64,000 nt of DNA. Origin: an uncultured delta proteobacterium. Lineage in GTDB: Bacteria; Desulfobacterota; Desulfobaccia; Desulfobaccales; 0-14-0-80-60-11. This document shows positions 24,573 through 36,601 of the stretch, piece after piece. A program made the position numbers and the translations under genes. Numbering within the stretch: the first letter of the stretch is position 1; the number at the start of each line of letters is the position of its first letter. The notes beneath the pieces are model-generated. The model searched no databases and had not been told where the DNA came from. It saw nothing but the letters and a program-made list of their open reading frames with translations. The stretch is from assembly GCA_963705115.1 (NCBI GenBank), contig CAVPIX010000002.1:11555-75554 (forward strand), read 5' to 3'.

Positions 24573-26075
24573 TCAGGATGTGTTATTCCCAGGGAAGGAA
24601 AGCCGGTACAGGGGCAGTTCCACCGCAAAGGTTGTCCCTTTGGGGCTTGTTTCCTTAACCCAAATCCGTCCCTTGTTCTCCTTGATGATGCCATACGCGG
24701 TGCTCAGACCCAGCCCGGTGCCCTTTCCCGGCGCTTTGGTGGTGAAAAAGGGGTCGAAGATCCGGGGGAGGTTCTCTTTCGGAATACCCCGCCCCGTGTC
24801 GGCCACCTCAATATAGGCTTTGCCCGCGGACTTGTGGCGATAGGTGCGCAGCGTCATGGTCCCTTGATGGTCCATGGCGTCCACGGCATTCAAAATGAGA
24901 TTGACAATCACCTGGCCCAGCTGATCCCTATCCCCTTTGACGAGCATGATTTCGTCGGAAAGCTCTTTTTTGATCTGGGTACCCATGAAAAATTTGGGGT
25001 CGCGGATGAGATCCAGGCTGTGCTCCAGCAGGGTATTGACGTGCAGGATTTCTTCGCTGTGGCTTTGCTGTCGGCTGTAGGTCAGAAGGTTCTTGATAAT
25101 CTTGCCGCACCGTTTGGCGTCTTCATACATGCACTTGAGATTCTGCCGCCGGGGATCATCCTCTTCAAGGGTGTTCAATAACAGATCGGCATAGAAAATA
25201 ATACCGGTCAGGGGATTGTTGATCTCATGGGCCACCCCGGCCGCGAGCTGGCCCAGGGAAGCCATTTTTTCCGCCCGGGAAATCCGTTGGGCCATCTCCC
25301 GCATGGCCTGCTCGTGTTTGAGCTTCTCCCTTAAATCATTAAACAAGCCCATGGTGGCGACTTCCTGATCGCCCTCGTAAATGATGGCGGCCGTGAGTTC
25401 CACCGGGATCTCTTCCCTTCGAGCATTGATAAGGGTGACTCTGCTCAGGTGCAGCTTGCCTCTCCCCCCCTTGGTACCGTCCCTCAAAATACCCATCATC
25501 GCCCTGGCCTGCCCCTGGGGGTAAAGGTCCTTGGCGGTTACATTTTTGGCCTGGGCCTCCTGCAGCGAATATCCTGTGAGTTCCTCGGCCGCGGGGTTCA
25601 TGGTGAGAATCCTGCCCTGGAGGTCAGCGGCAATAATGGCAGTGGTGGAGCTCTCTATAAGTTTTTCGTTAAGGTCTTTGGCGCCCGAGAGTTCCCGCTC
25701 GAGCCTCTTCAAGTTCGTGACATCATGAATACATTCCACGACGTACAGAACTTCGCCATTCTCGTCGAGGATGGGGGAGAACACGCGATTATCCCATTTT
25801 TCTATGCCATTGCTGCAGGTGACATACGCCTGGACGGAATGACCGCGGCGGTCCGACAGAACCTTGGCCAGAGCGCACGTTTCCATGGGGCAGGGCTCCA
25901 CTGAGTTGTAGAAGAAATCGTGACAGGTCTTCCCTACTATATCCTCTTTACTGGACCCGAACTTCTCCAGGAAATTCGTGTTCACGTCCACTACGATTTT
26001 ATTGGGTTTCAGGATCAGGGTGGGAACAGACAGGCTGTCGAAAAGTCTGTTTTTCCAGATGTGGGGAGTCTGCAT
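24573..26075 (-). CDS. Cytoplasmic PAS-PAS sensor histidine kinase
   Basis: Two PAS-like domains (first has GKTCH...PCPMETC); AHEINNP H-box; DTGRGI and GTGLGL; no TM segment. Confidence 0.93.
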   Translation of the reverse strand: MQTPHIWKNRLFDSLSVPTLILKPNKIVVDVNTNFLEKFGSSKEDIVGKTCHDFFYNSVEPCPMETCALAKVLSDRRGHSVQAYVTCSNGIEKWDNRVFSPILDENGEVLYVVECIHDVTNLKRLERELSGAKDLNEKLIESSTTAIIAADLQGRILTMNPAAEELTGYSLQEAQAKNVTAKDLYPQGQARAMMGILRDGTKGGRGKLHLSRVTLINARREEIPVELTAAIIYEGDQEVATMGLFNDLREKLKHEQAMREMAQRISRAEKMASLGQLAAGVAHEINNPLTGIIFYADLLLNTLEEDDPRRQNLKCMYEDAKRCGKIIKNLLTYSRQQSHSEEILHVNTLLEHSLDLIRDPKFFMGTQIKKELSDEIMLVKGDRDQLGQVIVNLILNAVDAMDHQGTMTLRTYRHKSAGKAYIEVADTGRGIPKENLPRIFDPFFTTKAPGKGTGLGLSTAYGIIKENKGRIWVKETSPKGTTFAVELPLYRLSFPGNNTS

Positions 26076-26109: not shown

Positions 26110-27471
26110 TTAAGCATGGGAGCCCCGGTTGCCATTGGCTTTGAGGTTGTAATGCTTAATTTTGCTGTGCAGCGTCACCCGGCTGATTTCCAGGGCCTCC
26201 GCGGCCTTGGAAATGTTCCAGCCATGAAGCGCCAGAATCCGCTCGATGTGCTGCTTTTCGTTCTCTTTTAATGATTGCGGCAGGTCCTGGGTGGAGGATC
26301 GCAAGAGAAAGGCAAAATCATCCTTGGTAAGGTAGTGCCCTTTAGCCAACACCACGGCCCGTTCCACCGCATTTTCCAACTCCCGGACATTGCCGGGCCA
26401 CGGATAACTCTTCAGGGCGCTGATGGCCTGCGGATTGATGCCCGCCACCGGTTTATTGGTTTCCTGGCGGATGCGTTCCAGAAAGTGCTGGGCCAACACG
26501 GGGATATCATCAAGTCGAGCCCTGAGGGGCGGAATTTCAAGGTCAATGACATTCAAGCGATAGTAAAAATCCTGGCGAAAGGCGCCCCGCTCGATCTCCT
26601 TGGCAAGGTCCCGATGAGTGGCGGAAATCAGGCGGAACTCAATGGGAATCTTCTCGGTGCCGCCCACGCGGTGAAAGGATTTTTCCTGCAGCACCCGCAG
26701 AAGATCGATTTGCATTTTGAGGGGGATTTCGCCGATTTCGTCCAAAAACAGGGTCCCGCCCTGGGCCATCTCCAGCCGCCCTTTTTTGGCCCTTCGGGCC
26801 CCGGTGAAGGCTCCGCTCTCGTGGCCGAACAACTCGCTTTCCAGGAGCGTTTCGGTGAAGGCCCCGCAGTTTATGGGAATAAAAGGCCCTATACTCCGGT
26901 CGCTCATGGCATGGATGGCCTTGGCCACCAACTCTTTGCCGGTGCCGGTTTCGCCCCGCAGGAGCACGGGAGAATCGAAGGTGGCCACCTGTTCGATCAG
27001 TTTAAACAATTGCTGCATGCAGTGGGAGGCGCCGATCAAATCATCGCAGCGCACCCGGCAGGCCACCTGCTCCCGCAGGATGGCATTTTCATCAATCAGC
27101 TTTTTTTGCCGCAGGAGTCTTTCCAGGAGGCAGGCCAAATCCGCCGGTTCGAAGGGCTTGGTGAGATAATCGCAGGCGCCCCGCTTCATGGCGTCCACCG
27201 CGGTTTCAATGGAGCCGTACGCGGTGATCATGACCACCATGGAGTGGGGGCAGTTCTGCTTCAGGTAATCAAGGACCTGGAAGCCATCCACTTCGGGCAT
27301 TTTGATATCGAGGAAGATGAAATCGTAGTCCTTCTCGTCCACCATATCGAGAGCAGCCCGGCCGCCGTCCGCGCCCTCCACGTCATAGCCCGACATCCTG
27401 AACCAGTCCACCAGGGATTCCCGCACAATCTTTTCATCATCGACAATCAACACCTTCCATCTGCCGCTCAT
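26110..27471 (-). CDS. sigma54-dependent response regulator (REC-AAA+-HTH, NtrC family)
   Basis: DIKMP receiver, [29 protein letters not shown] and Fis-type HTH. Confidence 0.96.
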   Translation of the reverse strand: MSGRWKVLIVDDEKIVRESLVDWFRMSGYDVEGADGGRAALDMVDEKDYDFIFLDIKMPEVDGFQVLDYLKQNCPHSMVVMITAYGSIETAVDAMKRGACDYLTKPFEPADLACLLERLLRQKKLIDENAILREQVACRVRCDDLIGASHCMQQLFKLIEQVATFDSPVLLRGETGTGKELVAKAIHAMSDRSIGPFIPINCGAFTETLLESELFGHESGAFTGARRAKKGRLEMAQGGTLFLDEIGEIPLKMQIDLLRVLQEKSFHRVGGTEKIPIEFRLISATHRDLAKEIERGAFRQDFYYRLNVIDLEIPPLRARLDDIPVLAQHFLERIRQETNKPVAGINPQAISALKSYPWPGNVRELENAVERAVVLAKGHYLTKDDFAFLLRSSTQDLPQSLKENEKQHIERILALHGWNISKAAEALEISRVTLHSKIKHYNLKANGNRGSHA

Positions 27472-27989: not shown

Positions 27990-28005
27990 TGGCACAGATA
28001 TTGTA
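27990..28005 (+). promoter_or_regulatory. Putative sigma54 promoter for the Cys-rich/GcvH-like genes
   Basis: TGGCAC-AGATA-TTGTA (-12 is GT rather than GC). Confidence 0.5.
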
Positions 28006-28101
28006 ATGATAGTAGTGCAAATGCGACAAACCAAGTAATAGCTGCTCTTCAACTAAAAGAACACCGTGTTATTACAGGGTTCAACCTGAAGGAGGCTGGT
28101 C

Positions 28102-28530
28102 ATGAGAACGGCAAGCGAACAGCAAAGTCAAGGGAGGCAGGTTTTTTCCATTAACGGTAATCAGTGTGTGTGGATGAAAGCCGGCGTGGTGAATTACAAG
28201 ACCTGCGATAATGCCTTCGATTGTACTTCCTGTACTTTTGATAAGGAAATCAGCAGGAAGTCGGCACAAAAAGCAACTGCCTTGGTTAGTTGGGGAGAGG
28301 TCATGCGGCAACCCCATTTGCATAAGGAATGCCGGCACATGCTGACCGGCCGGGTCCTTTTTAAACTCTGCGCCCACAACTACGAATGTAAGGACTGTGC
28401 CTACGATCAGCAACTGTATGAATATGACCAGCTCATGAATGAAGAGAACCTGTCAGCTATCGCCGCGGTTCAGGTTGATAACTTTCCCGGCTTCACAGTG
28501 TCCATGGTTGACAATTATTGCTCCATATGA
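28102..28530 (+). CDS. Stand-alone double Cys-rich domain (2 x CX12CX5CX2C), duplicate of the N-terminus of the next gene
   Basis: GGAGG RBS; near-identical to the N-terminal ~110 aa of 28621..29541; all eight Cys retained. Confidence 0.8.
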   Translation: MRTASEQQSQGRQVFSINGNQCVWMKAGVVNYKTCDNAFDCTSCTFDKEISRKSAQKATALVSWGEVMRQPHLHKECRHMLTGRVLFKLCAHNYECKDCAYDQQLYEYDQLMNEENLSAIAAVQVDNFPGFTVSMVDNYCSI

Positions 28531-28620
28531 GCATGACGCCGCTCGGCGCCAATAATTCCATTGCCACCCCGCACCGAAGAGAGCGCCTGCTCTGGTGCGG
28601 GGAAATCAAGGAGGGTGATT

Positions 28621-29541
28621 ATGAAAACGCCAGACGGACAAAAAGGCCACAGAGTTAAAGTTTTTTCCATGGAAGACAACCAGTGTGTCTGGATGAAGGC
28701 CGGGGTGGTGAATTTCAAAATCTGCGACAATGCCTTTGATTGCACTTCCTGCGCCTTTGACAAGGGCATCAGCAAGAAGGCGGCGCAAAAGCCCACCGCA
28801 CTGGTCAGTTGGCAGGAGGTCATGCAGCAGCCGCATTTGCACAAGGAATGCCGGCATATGCTCACCGGCCGGGTCCAATTCAAGTTGTGCTCCCACAATT
28901 TCGAATGCAAGGACTGCGCCTACGATCAGCAGCTCTATGAGTACGACCAGCTCCTGGTTGAAGAGGACCTGTGGTCTCATCCCGCGGCGACGGCCAACAA
29001 GATTGGCGGCTTCAGGGTGGCCGACGGCTATTACTACCACAAGGGCCACGGCTGGGCCCGCATCGAGCACGGCGGCTTCGTGCGCCTGGGGGTGGATGAT
29101 TTTGCCTGGAAGCTCCTCGGTTGGCCCACGGATATCTCTTTGCCGAAAATCGGCGCGAAGCTCAAGCCCACTGAGACAGGCTGGTCCATTACGAGAGAGG
29201 ACCATACCGCTGAGGTGCTCTCCCCCATGAGCGGCGTCGTCATGGCCACCAATCAAAACGCCTTGAAGCAGCCCAAGCTCGCCAAACAAGACCCCTACGG
29301 CCAGGGCTGGCTGGTGGTCATTGACCCCTTGAGCGGCCTGAAGAGCAAAACCAGAAGTCTGATGTTCGAGCAGAAAGCCGTTTCCTGGCTCAATGCCGAG
29401 GTCATGAAGCTGGACGACCTGGTGATGAGTGCCTACGGCGTCCCCCTGGCGGCCACCGGTGGTGAAATCGTGGACGATATCTACGGCAACCTGCATGATG
29501 TCAAGTGGGAAGACCTGATGCAGACGTTTCTGCATACCTGA
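28621..29541 (+). CDS. GcvH-like protein 1 (Cys-rich N-terminus, lipoyl Lys absent)
   Basis: YYHKGHGWA, VRLGVDDFA, SPMSGVV and DPYGQGWL define the H-protein fold; the lipoyl-Lys position reads Asp (ITREDHTAE). Confidence 0.85.
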   Translation: MKTPDGQKGHRVKVFSMEDNQCVWMKAGVVNFKICDNAFDCTSCAFDKGISKKAAQKPTALVSWQEVMQQPHLHKECRHMLTGRVQFKLCSHNFECKDCAYDQQLYEYDQLLVEEDLWSHPAATANKIGGFRVADGYYYHKGHGWARIEHGGFVRLGVDDFAWKLLGWPTDISLPKIGAKLKPTETGWSITREDHTAEVLSPMSGVVMATNQNALKQPKLAKQDPYGQGWLVVIDPLSGLKSKTRSLMFEQKAVSWLNAEVMKLDDLVMSAYGVPLAATGGEIVDDIYGNLHDVKWEDLMQTFLHT

Positions 29542-29573: not shown

Positions 29574-30146
29574 TCAGGCCGGCAGGCTGCGCAGGCTCTG
29601 GCGCAGGGCAAAGCTGCACCGCTCGCAAAAAAAGAGGTCCAAGTCGTCGAGGTGGCGGAGTCCGGGGCTATAACACATGAGGCACTTGGGGGTCTCGCAA
29701 TGGTACAGGGAGAAAGTGTGAGCCAGTTCATGGAGGGCGATCTTGGCCAGACGTTCATAATAGACGCCCTCCGGAGCCACCACCCCGTCTTCCAGGTGCT
29801 TCAGGCGGAAATCGGAAATAATTGCCAGGCTTAGCCCCAACTCCGCCTGACCGAACACAAAGGTGAGTATCGGCGAGCACAGGTCTACGTTCGTGACGGC
29901 CAGGATGCGCAGGTGGTGCGGGAACGGAAAGCCGGCCAGGTGCTTAAGGATGAGCCCGGCATCATACTGATTGCGCTGGCGTTGAAAAGCTTCCGCCGGG
30001 ATGGCCATGGCCGGCAGCATCTCCACCGGCGTTTCCAAAAGCGCCTGGATGTTGGCGGCTATCACCCGCAGCGCGGGGCGCGGCACCCGGCCCATCAAGG
30101 TCAGACCGATGGCGGGGGCCTGGGGCTTTTCTCGTGGCGGCGGCAT
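29574..30146 (-). CDS. Archaemetzincin-like Zn metalloprotease
   Basis: TFVFGQA, HELAHTFSLYHC...CLM...FCERC (HExxHxxGxxH with Gly replaced by Ser; Cys4 site retained). Confidence 0.85.
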   Translation of the reverse strand: MPPPREKPQAPAIGLTLMGRVPRPALRVIAANIQALLETPVEMLPAMAIPAEAFQRQRNQYDAGLILKHLAGFPFPHHLRILAVTNVDLCSPILTFVFGQAELGLSLAIISDFRLKHLEDGVVAPEGVYYERLAKIALHELAHTFSLYHCETPKCLMCYSPGLRHLDDLDLFFCERCSFALRQSLRSLPA

Positions 30147-33001: not shown

Positions 33002-34352
33002 GTGCTGCCGCATAAAAAGATCAGGATCCTCGTCGTGGACGACGAACTGAGCATCCGTGAATCCCTTAAAGGTTGGCTGCAACTGGACGGCTACCAGGTG
33101 GACGCCGCGGCCGGCGGTTCGGAGGCCCTGGCCAAGAACGCCGAGAACCGCTTCGACATCATGCTCATCGACGTCAAGATGCCTGAAATGGACGGCTTGA
33201 CCTTGCTGAAAAAGGTTAAGGAAACCGATGCCGATATCGCCATTCTCATGATGACCGCCCACGGCGCCATTCGGGATGCGGTGGAAGCCATGAAACTGGG
33301 CGCCTACGATTATCTGCTCAAGCCCTTCGAACTGGAGGAATTAAGCCTCAGCATCGAAAAACTGGTGCATTTGCAAACCCTGGCCATGGAAAACCTTATC
33401 CTGAAGGAGCGGGTCGCCAGCATCACCCGGTTTGAAAACCTGGTGAGTCAGGCTCCGGTCATGATTAAGCTGTTTGAAACCATTGTGGATGTGGCCCAAA
33501 CCGACGCCACCGTCCTCATCACCGGCGAAACCGGCACCGGCAAAGAGTTGGTGGCCCGGGCCATCCATACTCAAAGCCCGCGCTGTTACGCCCCTTTCAT
33601 TGCCATCAACTGCGGGGCCTTCACCGAACAACTCCTGGAGAGCGAACTCTTCGGCCACGAGCGGGGCGCGTTCACCGACGCCAAAAGCGCCAAGAAGGGC
33701 CGCCTGGAAATGGCCAATGCCGGCACCCTCTTCCTGGACGAAGTGGGTGATATTTCCATGAGGATGCAGATTGACCTGCTGCGGGTGCTCCAGACCCGGG
33801 AATTCACCCGAGTGGGCGGCACCCTCACCCTGCGCAGCGATTTCCGGGTCATCGCCGCCACCAACCAGGATATCCAGGAAGCCATCCAGAAAAAGACCTT
33901 CCGATCCGACTTGTTTTACCGGTTAAATGTGGTTCATCTCGAGGTACCGCCCCTGAGGGAGAGGCCGGAAGATATTCCCCTTTTTGGCCCAGCATTTTTT
34001 GTGGTGCTATGCCACCGAGACCAATAAAAAGATCGACTCCATCCATCCGGAGGCCATGGAGGCCTTGCGGCGCTATCTGTGGCCCGGAAATGTCAGGGAA
34101 CTGGAGAATGCCATCGAACGGGCCGTAGTGGTGGGGAAAGGCCGGCAAATCCAACTAAAGGATTTGCCTTTTACCATTGCTTTGGGAGGCGCGGCGGAAA
34201 TGGAAAAATTGTCTCTGGAGGAGATGGAGCGCCAGCATATTGCCCGGGTCCTGGCCATCGAAGCCGGCAATCTTTCCAATGTTGCCAGAGTCCTGCGCAT
34301 CAACCGCTCCACGCTTTATGCCAAGATCAAGAAATACGGCTTGGCGCCCTAA
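33002..34352 (+). pseudogene. sigma54-dependent response regulator split by a +1 frameshift (T5 at 33981-33985)
   Basis: ORF 33002..34027 carries REC and AAA+ (GAFTDA). Removing one T gives DIPLLAQHFL and joins ORF 33984..34352 (WPGNVRELEN, HTH). Confidence 0.85.
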
Positions 34353-34392: not shown

Positions 34393-35031
34393 ATGGCAAA
34401 CCATCCGTTTTTAGGCCTGGTGGCCTTAGGTCCCGTCGATCCGGACATCCTTCGGAGACTGCGCACCACCCTCGCTAAGTTCCTCAAGCTGCCGGTGCGG
34501 GTGCTGAAACCCAAGCCCCTGCCGGCGCAGACGTATCACTTGACGCGGCAGCAGTATAATTCCACCCAGTTGCTGGAATTTCTCCTGGACCATGTAAAAA
34601 CCAGGGCCCTGCGGGTTTTAGGGGTGACGGCCGGGGATCTTTATATTCCCATCCTGACTTTCATTTTCGGTGAGGGCCTGGTAAACGGCAAGGCTGCCAT
34701 CATCTCCCTGTTCCGTCCCCGGGGTGACGCCGATGGGGTCACACCTTCCCGGACGGTCCTCATGGAACGCCTTATAAAGCTGAGCCTGCACGAATTGGGT
34801 CACACCTTCGGCCTGGGGCATTGCCGCGAAAAGGGGTGTTTAATGGGATTTTCGTCGAATTTGGAAAAATTGGACCAGACAGAAATTGCTTTCTGTGATT
34901 ATTGCCAGGTTTTAATGACGGATTTCTTTCTGGAGCAAGGCTTGCAGCCGCCCCTCAAGCGGTATGCAGAAACTCCTGTACAAGTCGCTTCCAACCCAGG
35001 TTCGGGTAATTCCCATAAACATCGTCAATGA
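34393..35031 (+). CDS. Archaemetzincin-like Zn metalloprotease
   Basis: TFIFGEG, HELGHTFGLGHC...CLMGFS...FCDYC (canonical motif). Confidence 0.9.
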   Translation: MANHPFLGLVALGPVDPDILRRLRTTLAKFLKLPVRVLKPKPLPAQTYHLTRQQYNSTQLLEFLLDHVKTRALRVLGVTAGDLYIPILTFIFGEGLVNGKAAIISLFRPRGDADGVTPSRTVLMERLIKLSLHELGHTFGLGHCREKGCLMGFSSNLEKLDQTEIAFCDYCQVLMTDFFLEQGLQPPLKRYAETPVQVASNPGSGNSHKHRQ

Positions 35032-35836
35032 TCGTCCCTCCGGAAGGCAGGAAGGCTCCCGGAGCGGCTTGCAGCATCCCCAACAGCTTGATGATTTCGC
35101 TCTCGGTCCAGGCGATGTTGCACTGGCCAAAAAGCATCTCTTCCAGATCCCCCTTCAAGTTGGTGGGAGTAACTACAAAGAGCCAGCCCTCACCGTAGGG
35201 ATCGTCATGGGTGATTTGCGGTCTTTCCCGGACCTTGGGATTAATGGCGTCGATGGTCCCGTCAAGGGGCGCCAGAACCTCAGCCTTTTTCCTCTGGCGG
35301 CCCAGGCTCATGAACGGTTCGTTAGCTCTAATTTTTTGGCCGATTTTCGGAAAATCCATCCTGGTGACCGGGCCCAGGAGTTTTTGCGAGAAGTCGTCCA
35401 AGCCGAGACGCACCCGGTCAGCCTTCTCCAGAGCCACCCAGGTGTGGCCCAGATGCAGAAAATTGGAGGTGGGCACTTGAATGCCGAAAATTTCATGCAC
35501 CCGGGGTTGGGGGGGGGCCAGGAAAAAATCGAATTGTTCTTCCAGAAGCTCGTCAAAGGAACACTGGTGGCAGAAATTTGTCTTCATCAACGGGCACTGG
35601 CGGCGTTCCCCGAACCGTTGGTGCATCTTGTTTTCCCACGGCAGCCGCTTTACTGCCTGTGCCGCAGGATCCTTCGCTGACTGTCGCCGGGCCAGTTGTT
35701 TGACCGCGGATTCGGTCATGGCCTGGTCGAATTCGCAGGCCTGGCAATCGAAGTTATTATCACAGAGCTTGAACTGGATCACCCCGGCATCCACCCAGAT
35801 GCAGGATTTCTTACTTTCCATAACTCTCTCTGCCAT
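34955..35836 (-). CDS. GcvH-like protein 2 (Cys-rich N-terminus, lipoyl Lys absent)
   Basis: Start at ATG 35836. CIWVDAGVIQFKLCDNNFDCQAC; LHLGHTW, LGLDDF, APLDG and DPYGEGW; the lipoyl position reads Arg. Confidence 0.85.
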   Translation of the reverse strand: MAERVMESKKSCIWVDAGVIQFKLCDNNFDCQACEFDQAMTESAVKQLARRQSAKDPAAQAVKRLPWENKMHQRFGERRQCPLMKTNFCHQCSFDELLEEQFDFFLAPPQPRVHEIFGIQVPTSNFLHLGHTWVALEKADRVRLGLDDFSQKLLGPVTRMDFPKIGQKIRANEPFMSLGRQRKKAEVLAPLDGTIDAINPKVRERPQITHDDPYGEGWLFVVTPTNLKGDLEEMLFGQCNIAWTESEIIKLLGMLQAAPGAFLPSGGTIIDDVYGNYPNLGWKRLVQEFLHTA

Positions 35837-35986: not shown

Positions 35987-36601
35987 TTACTTCACCGGAC
36001 GGATGAGACCCTTTTTCATCAGGTTTTTCAGGAAAAATTCCTGGACCAGGAGCTTCCAGCCCAACTCCTGATAATTGCCATAGACGTCGTCGACGATTTC
36101 GCCGCCGTCAGGCAGGGTGACGCCAATCCTGGTCTCCATCAGGTTCAGCAGGCGGTGCGACTCCTTTTCCATCCAGATGACCGCATCCTCGCCGGTGAGC
36201 AGGTTCTCCAGATTGCGGCGGAGATTGATGGGCTTGACCATAAACAGCCAGCCTTCCCCGTAAGGATCATCATGAATGAGACCAGGGTTTTGCTGGACCT
36301 TGGGGTTGACCTCCTCAATGGCGCCGTCCACCGGAGCCTCAAAGGAAGCCTTTTTCCCCTCCCGGATCAAAGCCAGGCAAAGATGATCCTGAAAGTAGAC
36401 CTTGCCGATCTCCGGCAGCCTGACTTCCTTTGCCAGGCCCAGGAGCTTTTGAGAGAAGTCATCCAGTCCCACCCTTACCAGATCGTCGCCCTCAGGCGCC
36501 GCCCAGGTATGGCCCCGGTGCAGGTAATAATTCTCGGTGGGCACTTGAAAACCGAAAACCTCGCTCATCTGTGACCGTGTGATCTTTTCCTGAGGCATCA
36601 T
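35987..36601 (-). CDS. GcvH-like protein 3 (no Cys-rich domain, lipoyl Lys absent)
   Basis: Start at ATG 36601 after AAGGAGG; LHRGHTW, VGLDDF, APVDG and DPYGEGW; the lipoyl position reads Gly. Confidence 0.85.
   Translation of the reverse strand: MMPQEKITRSQMSEVFGFQVPTENYYLHRGHTWAAPEGDDLVRVGLDDFSQKLLGLAKEVRLPEIGKVYFQDHLCLALIREGKKASFEAPVDGAIEEVNPKVQQNPGLIHDDPYGEGWLFMVKPINLRRNLENLLTGEDAVIWMEKESHRLLNLMETRIGVTLPDGGEIVDDVYGNYQELGWKLLVQEFFLKNLMKKGLIRPVK

Follow-up and report, generated by a model that had tools for sequence, protein, structure and literature searches.

Gene A, a 142-aa open reading frame located directly upstream of a GcvH-like gene (gene B), is a member of a conserved family of stand-alone cysteine-rich proteins and not a private duplicate of the N-terminus of its neighbour. 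This family membership was overlooked by the first, sequence-only reading of the window, by which we mean the whole stretch of 64,000 nucleotides analysed here (G+C content about 55-60%). Genes A and B share a compact eight-cysteine module, defined here under the working name Cys2x: about 95 residues, made up of two repeats of about 45 residues with four invariant cysteines each. The module has no name in the curated libraries searched. It occurs in about a fifth of the sampled genomes of the phylum; in other anaerobic phyla, two-component proteins have it in output or input position. Tentatively, and at slightly less than an even chance, we regard A as a functional, maintained and presumably co-transcribed free Cys2x protein which acts together with B or with the partner of B's Cys2x.

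Both genes and their relevant neighbours in the window are the following:

24573..26075, minus strand: soluble PAS-PAS histidine kinase
26110..27471, minus strand: NtrC-type sigma54 response regulator, divergent from A
28102..28530, plus strand: gene A, stand-alone Cys2x protein, 142 aa
28165..28233, plus strand: A repeat 1, CX12CX5CX2C
28330..28398, plus strand: A repeat 2, CX12CX5CX2C
28450..28527, plus strand: C-terminal tail of A, codons 117-142
28621..29541, plus strand: gene B, Cys2x with GcvH-like domain and helical C-terminal extension, 306 aa
28684..28752, plus strand: B repeat 1, CX12CX5CX2C
28849..28917, plus strand: B repeat 2, CX12CX5CX2C
29032..29388, plus strand: GcvH-fold domain of B, Asp at the lipoyl-lysine position
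29574..30146, minus strand: archaemetzincin 1, convergent with B
34955..35836, minus strand: GcvH-like 2, with a full repeat (35735-35803), a shortened CX7CX2C repeat and then a GcvH-like domain
35987..36601, minus strand: GcvH-like 3, without Cys module

Gene A is collinear with the N-terminus of gene B from the first codon. Their alignment is gapless over residues 1-134, in agreement with the initial observation that the 142-aa gene repeats the N-terminus of the next one. The interval originally singled out, 28102-28970, comprises A, the spacer and the N-domain of B. The start of B was assigned to ATG 28621, and not to the listed TTG 28561, on the basis of orthologues and of an AAGGAGG ribosome-binding site. 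A six-frame motif scan detected exact CX12CX5CX2C twice in A, twice in B and once in GcvH-like 2, so that the two repeats reported per copy are real; two further matches to a looser Cys pattern in the window are unrelated. The description of the remaining GcvH-like genes was likewise accurate, with one full repeat and a second shortened to CX7CX2C in GcvH-like 2 and zero repeats in GcvH-like 3. Copies of the module in the source genome total three (A, B and GcvH-like 2).

Over the core (codons 13-116), A and B are identical at 80.4% of nucleotides and 81.7% of amino acids. Core differences are distributed as 12, 10 and 39 over the three codon positions, i.e. 39 of 61 fall at the third, and the bias previously seen by eye is thus substantiated by counting. 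Four methods gave dN of 0.10, dS of 0.7-1.4 and omega of 0.07-0.14; because dS is near saturation, these omega values are approximate, their direction being robust. According to the Nei-Gojobori method, there are 24 nonsynonymous differences per 253.7 sites versus 37 synonymous differences per 58.3 sites (Fisher p = 2e-17). Since pairwise omega is about 0.1, neither copy is drifting freely. Outside the core, in the first 12 codons and in codons 117-134, divergence between A and B is far greater and close to neutral. Gene A was also tested directly, by comparison of stand-alone orthologues from other genomes. Their omega amounts to 0.10-0.23, versus 0.06-0.11 when this domain is taken from B orthologues. 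It follows that A itself is constrained, roughly twofold less than B, and the purifying selection suspected at the outset, with dN/dS proposed as its test, is borne out for the A-B pair as well as for the stand-alone proteins.

A length-restricted search yielded 106 short homologues of A, most of them 128-144 aa long and all without names, from metagenome genomes of Desulfobaccales and Syntrophobacteraceae. In the N-domain tree, a single clade unites 64 of the 79 short proteins, representing clusters of stand-alone orthologues in Desulfobaccales; the 60-row core of this clade has SH-aLRT support of 96. The other 15 were not counted as stand-alone; they mostly look like frameshifted or cut fused genes and bear tails such as TTTTKGTVG. 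The tail of A is homologous to the linker and first GcvH strand of B (..VAGFMV) and diverges afterwards to ..N-x-C-S-I. DsrC/TusE-type carriers with a C-terminal Cys arm are marked by the DsrC fold and a conserved penultimate Cys; no match to A was obtained with the DsrC/TusE profile, and the C-x-x ending, most often CSI, is present in only 33 of 63 members of the stand-alone clade. This ending adds a ninth cysteine which has no counterpart in B; the tail is probably flexible.

The gene order kinase, sigma54 regulator, A, B, archaemetzincin recurs at three other loci (L005, L006 and L007). Distribution of the close B type is patchy, as it was found in 13 of 83 genomes of the order and in 2 of 8 within the genus. 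About six of the 13 genomes with this B module possess A and six are without it; of the two modules in G042, only one includes A. In Syntrophobacter fumaroxidans the gene set is present and A is absent. In G060, the A copy is a 73-aa ORF reduced to one intact repeat. Its classification as a pseudogene was withdrawn, since an ORF with an intact repeat resembles the single-repeat ORFs of other families (see below). Gene A is dispensable in many lineages.

Signals bearing on expression of A and B are located as follows:

27990..28005, plus strand: sigma54-type -24/-12 element TGGCACagataTTGTA, 112 nt before the ATG of A
28088..28095, plus strand: ribosome-binding site of A, GAAGGAGG, read directly off the sequence
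28567..28602, plus strand: stable hairpin in the 90-nt A-B spacer, no T tract

By itself, the sigma54 pattern is no more frequent in the window than chance predicts (7 found versus 6.6 expected), and the -12 part of the element reads TTGT versus TTGC in the consensus. We credit this candidate because its position is conserved, and not for the pattern alone: in 14 further orthologous loci (15 in total), TGGCA[CT]-N5-TTGTA precedes the first gene of the unit by 90-129 nt. It precedes A in six loci with both genes, where B is without an element of its own, and it precedes B in six loci lacking A, S. fumaroxidans among them. Since the element occurs only before the first gene, A and B probably share one operon. 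A near-identical AAGGAGG block is found before both A and B in relatives, from which it can be concluded that the duplicated unit included the ribosome-binding site. Folding of the A-B spacer (28520-28630) gives -42.2 kcal/mol with z = -2.5, and the hairpin core AGAGAGCGCCTGCTCT is common to the A-B spacers of the window, L005 and L014. No terminator-like site was found on the plus strand of the spacer. The hairpin may serve in processing or stabilizing the mRNA and thereby determine the A:B ratio. A precedent for sigma54 control of hdr genes is known from Desulfovibrio vulgaris, where the regulator is DVU2394 (PMC3333781).

What kind of domain is Cys2x? The early view that it is unnamed agrees with searches of Pfam-A, NCBIfam and PDB sequences, in which neither single sequences nor profiles gave any significant match. 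Pfam searched with 46 members at E <= 10 returned only noise, the best hit being zf-CHY with E of 0.02-0.16, far below the cut-off. Two profiles searched against PDB sequences gave nothing significant (E 0.06, L37Ae ribbon, and 4.9). Literature searches found no paper on the Cys2x module or its gene set, nor is the gene mentioned in the proteome paper on S. fumaroxidans. Across the family, all eight cysteines and Trp24 are invariant, and G28, D47, L81 and Q103 are nearly so. In having four cysteines per unit of about 45 residues and, in the model described below, CxxC at the start of a helix, Cys2x resembles Cys4 zinc ribbons and treble-clef fingers. Sites binding [4Fe-4S] with CX2CX5C or CX5CX2C spacing occur in FNR, WhiB, EndoIII and RumA, and CX5CX2C of Cys2x recalls some of these cluster sites. 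The order and spacing of CX12CX5CX2C, however, fit neither the zinc ribbons and treble clefs nor any of the cluster sites. The WhiB/FNR/EndoIII-type motif is C-Xn-C-X2-C-X5-C, whereas in Cys2x the order is reversed (X5 then X2), and no profile match was obtained. Spacing in 2x[4Fe-4S] ferredoxins (CX2CX2CX3C) is different as well, and there is no Fer4 match even at E <= 10.

An AF2 model of B, built from a more diverse alignment, has pLDDT of 83, with values of 72-81 in the N-domain and below 50 in the linker (residues 115-119). In each modelled repeat, the neighbours of Cys1 and Cys2 are linked by a beta-bridge, and Cys3-x-x-Cys4 is placed at the N-terminus of a helix. Such a predicted arrangement would allow each repeat a single Cys4 site and fits Zn and Fe-S alike. 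This pattern and the eight invariant cysteines suggest paired Cys4 metal sites, either Zn or Fe-S, as the most likely reading of the Cys2x repeats. The model of A alone (46 homologues, pLDDT 48.5) was too poor for use.

The C-terminal part of B has the GcvH fold. B passes the Pfam cut-off for PF01597 (64.7 bits, cut-off 22.2) and fails that of the NCBIfam GcvH equivalog TIGR00527 (60.6 versus 115.85); A matches neither of the two, the GcvH domain being absent. Foldseek search of PDB with the whole B model as query retrieved GcvH structures with target-normalised TM of 0.83-0.91, and only GcvH and biotinyl/lipoyl matches, all to the C-terminal part. The lipoyl lysine is absent in B, as K of ESVK (1onl) aligns to D of TREDHTA. 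B is comparable to GcvH and to LbpA of the sHdr system in sharing the GcvH fold (PF01597; PMC6067878), and GcvH-like genes of the type described here adjoin Hdr-like genes, another point of likeness to LbpA. Unlike B, GcvH and LbpA are without a Cys-rich N-domain.

A scan of 1.84 billion representatives with residues 13-116 of A delivered 335 Cys2x clusters at 50% identity. Among 113 representatives, partner domains are GCV_H (40), receiver (12), TPR (4) and HisKA-HATPase (1), and about half have none. In receiver proteins Cys2x is C-terminal (REC-TPR-Cys2x), and in the soluble histidine kinase it sits between TPR and HisKA. Cys2x thereby takes the places of response-regulator outputs and of kinase inputs such as PAS and GAF, following REC-TPR or preceding HisKA, but it has no homology to PAS, GAF or any other named signalling domain. 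The REC-Cys2x family is large, with members named from Dehalococcoidia and Aminicenantia. At the three loci read, a sigma54-like gene, a kinase and an NtrC-type regulator come before the REC-Cys2x gene; at two of the three, Hdr-like genes come after it. One locus has REC-Cys2x and a Cys2x kinase around NuoEFG-like genes. In L020 (2533-6888) and L021 (2427-6829), the sigma54-like gene upstream of REC-Cys2x is short, coding for about 350 aa with only a Sigma54_DBD match; the gene beside it encodes a histidine kinase, the sensor part of which matches both the C-domain of the [FeFe]-hydrogenase large subunit and the FeS domain.

Within the phylum, a profile census detected Cys2x in 88 of 401 evenly drawn genomes and in 63 of 254 genera. 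The surroundings (8 kb) of 40 Cys2x loci, taken from 40 genomes, contain a sigma54 activator in 32 cases, a kinase in 33 and an archaemetzincin in 30, along with HdrA in 18, HdrC in 12 and HdrB in 9; because several contigs are short, these counts are lower bounds. The archaemetzincin gene directly flanks the Cys2x-GcvH gene at 30 of the 40 loci. Since Cys2x is found in response regulators and sensor kinases of other anaerobes, it looks like a new signalling part. Judged by its partners and neighbours, Cys2x is an autonomous module tied to signalling. The idea that it represents a sensor domain is backed indirectly, by the REC and histidine kinase fusions and by sigma54 two-component neighbours across the phylum.

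Free copies are not confined to the clade of A. In G008, dS between A and B is 0.22, the tail of A still reads GFMVADGYYYH and the A ORF ends 11 nt before B; this free copy stems from a younger, separate duplication event. Two other families of the phylum have, immediately upstream of the fused gene, single-repeat ORFs about 70 aa in length. Such ORFs share with their neighbour a lineage-specific CX13C spacing (CX13CX5CX2C) and have a conserved ..(R)AA C-terminus. These ORFs are located as follows:

L025, 1934-2308: single-repeat ORF
L026, 1802-2023: single-repeat ORF
L027, 1836-2162, minus strand: single-repeat ORF
L028, 2356-2565, minus strand: single-repeat ORF
L055, 7558-7884: single-repeat ORF

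In all, free copies originated on at least three occasions, and this repeated invention beside the fused gene speaks for a selectable role of the extra module. P0337 (91 aa) is a hybrid single repeat: it opens like repeat 1 (CVWMK.G) and continues in frame as the end of repeat 2 (RVLFKLCSHNY.C..C), the product that unequal recombination of the internal repeats should give. Two double modules per chain (Cys2x-Cys2x) were found in P0224 and P0225. The former is full-length, 450 aa (L023 5304-6656), and has the organization Cys2x-Cys2x-GcvH with one GcvH domain. Next to it (L023 6907-10362) is the gene of a 1151-aa HdrA-like protein with a GCV_H domain match, and after this gene comes that of an MvhD/FlpD protein. 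Among loci L029-L068, full-length Cys2x-GcvH paralogues commonly stand in tandem pairs (L048, L057, L059, L060 and L064).

How A might work with B can be outlined as follows. Tandem duplication of the ribosome-binding site and of the first approximately 134 codons of B gave rise to A and set it between B and the candidate sigma54 promoter of B. With A in this position, a single transcript would carry A and B, and it would be made when the divergent PAS kinase and NtrC-type regulator fire. The A protein would then associate through its Cys2x, most likely with B itself or with the partner contacted by B's Cys2x, giving two Cys2x units per GcvH-like unit. The setting would be a redox-linked signalling set that consists of kinase, sigma54 activator, archaemetzincin and Cys2x-GcvH protein, often accompanied by Hdr-like genes. 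Metal binding, co-transcription, A-B contact and the positive or negative sign of the effect of A are points that we infer.

A constructive partner has to be weighed against an inhibitor. The concept of microProteins and truncated-paralogue regulators comes from plant and animal transcription factors. Like microProteins, A is a small truncated duplicate of a multidomain parent that keeps one module; it differs from them in that it is bacterial, is predicted to be co-transcribed with its parent and has a Cys-rich, apparently metal-type module. It lacks the effector (GcvH) domain of its parent, has the build of such inhibitors and could be an antagonist that titrates B or B's partner into non-productive complexes and damps the output of the sigma54 circuit, which we consider fairly unlikely. 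Some observations would suit such a role: A is more relaxed than B and often lost, the stable A-B hairpin could give unequal A:B levels, and the half-modules with one repeat that other families have ahead of the fused gene could act as caps. An inhibitor encoded on the transcript of its own target, however, would have little regulatory freedom, and fusions of two Cys2x with one GcvH suggest that the extra module is constructive. Predicted co-transcription, recurrent origin and the natural Cys2x-Cys2x-GcvH fusions make us lean towards the constructive partner over the antagonist, although an A-B co-transcript of fixed ratio is also compatible with an inhibitor role. Alternatively, A might be independent of B, a diffusible Cys2x that acts on the kinase/regulator pair in feedback, or on an Hdr-like complex, and is equivalent to a B fragment released by the archaemetzincin. 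Fusions of Cys2x to REC and to histidine kinase in other phyla suggest direct dealings with two-component parts; the archaemetzincin is adjacent at three quarters of the loci, the end of A falls at B's low-confidence linker, and half of the clade has the new conserved C-x-x terminus. As the case is entirely inferential, and as the source genome has no REC-Cys2x or HK-Cys2x gene, this alternative is in our opinion unlikely.

Gene A could finally be a functionless duplication scar, held similar to B by gene conversion. Tandem copies make conversion possible, A is nearer to its own B than to other A copies in G008 (dS as above) and in L005 (dS 0.42), and it is lost or reduced in several genomes. 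In the window, on the other hand, A and B have a dS of about 1 and so underwent no recent conversion, although their dN is as low as 0.10. The A orthologues group in a separate clade that has a tail of its own and low omega, and A keeps all eight cysteines, its ribosome-binding site and its start codon. A scar is thus highly improbable.

A functional free Cys2x protein, which we prefer, may be seen in a broader frame. Cys2x might be a new redox- or metal-sensing signalling module of anaerobes, through which sigma54 two-component systems would be coupled with flavin-based bifurcating complexes of the Hdr type. In the lipoate-less GcvH-like protein it would replace the lipoyl dithiol arm, and free Cys2x would be a diffusible signal, like the B fragment released by the archaemetzincin. 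We hold this whole scheme to be quite improbable; if its released-fragment part were true, it would provide the first physiological substrate for prokaryotic archaemetzincins, for which we know of no established substrate. Little is known, too, of how bacterial Hdr-like complexes are regulated and what their physiological substrates are. With about 140 residues and without other domains, A is convenient for expression, metal analysis and partner fishing.

The window codes for a second sigma54 response regulator (33002-34352, plus strand), which is split by a +1 shift into two ORFs, 33002-34027 and 33984-34352. The shift coincides with a C4T5 run, CCCCTTTTTGG, at about 33976-33986, and is either a sequencing error or the mark of a real pseudogene. 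The orthologue of this regulator in L005 is intact and 449 aa long.
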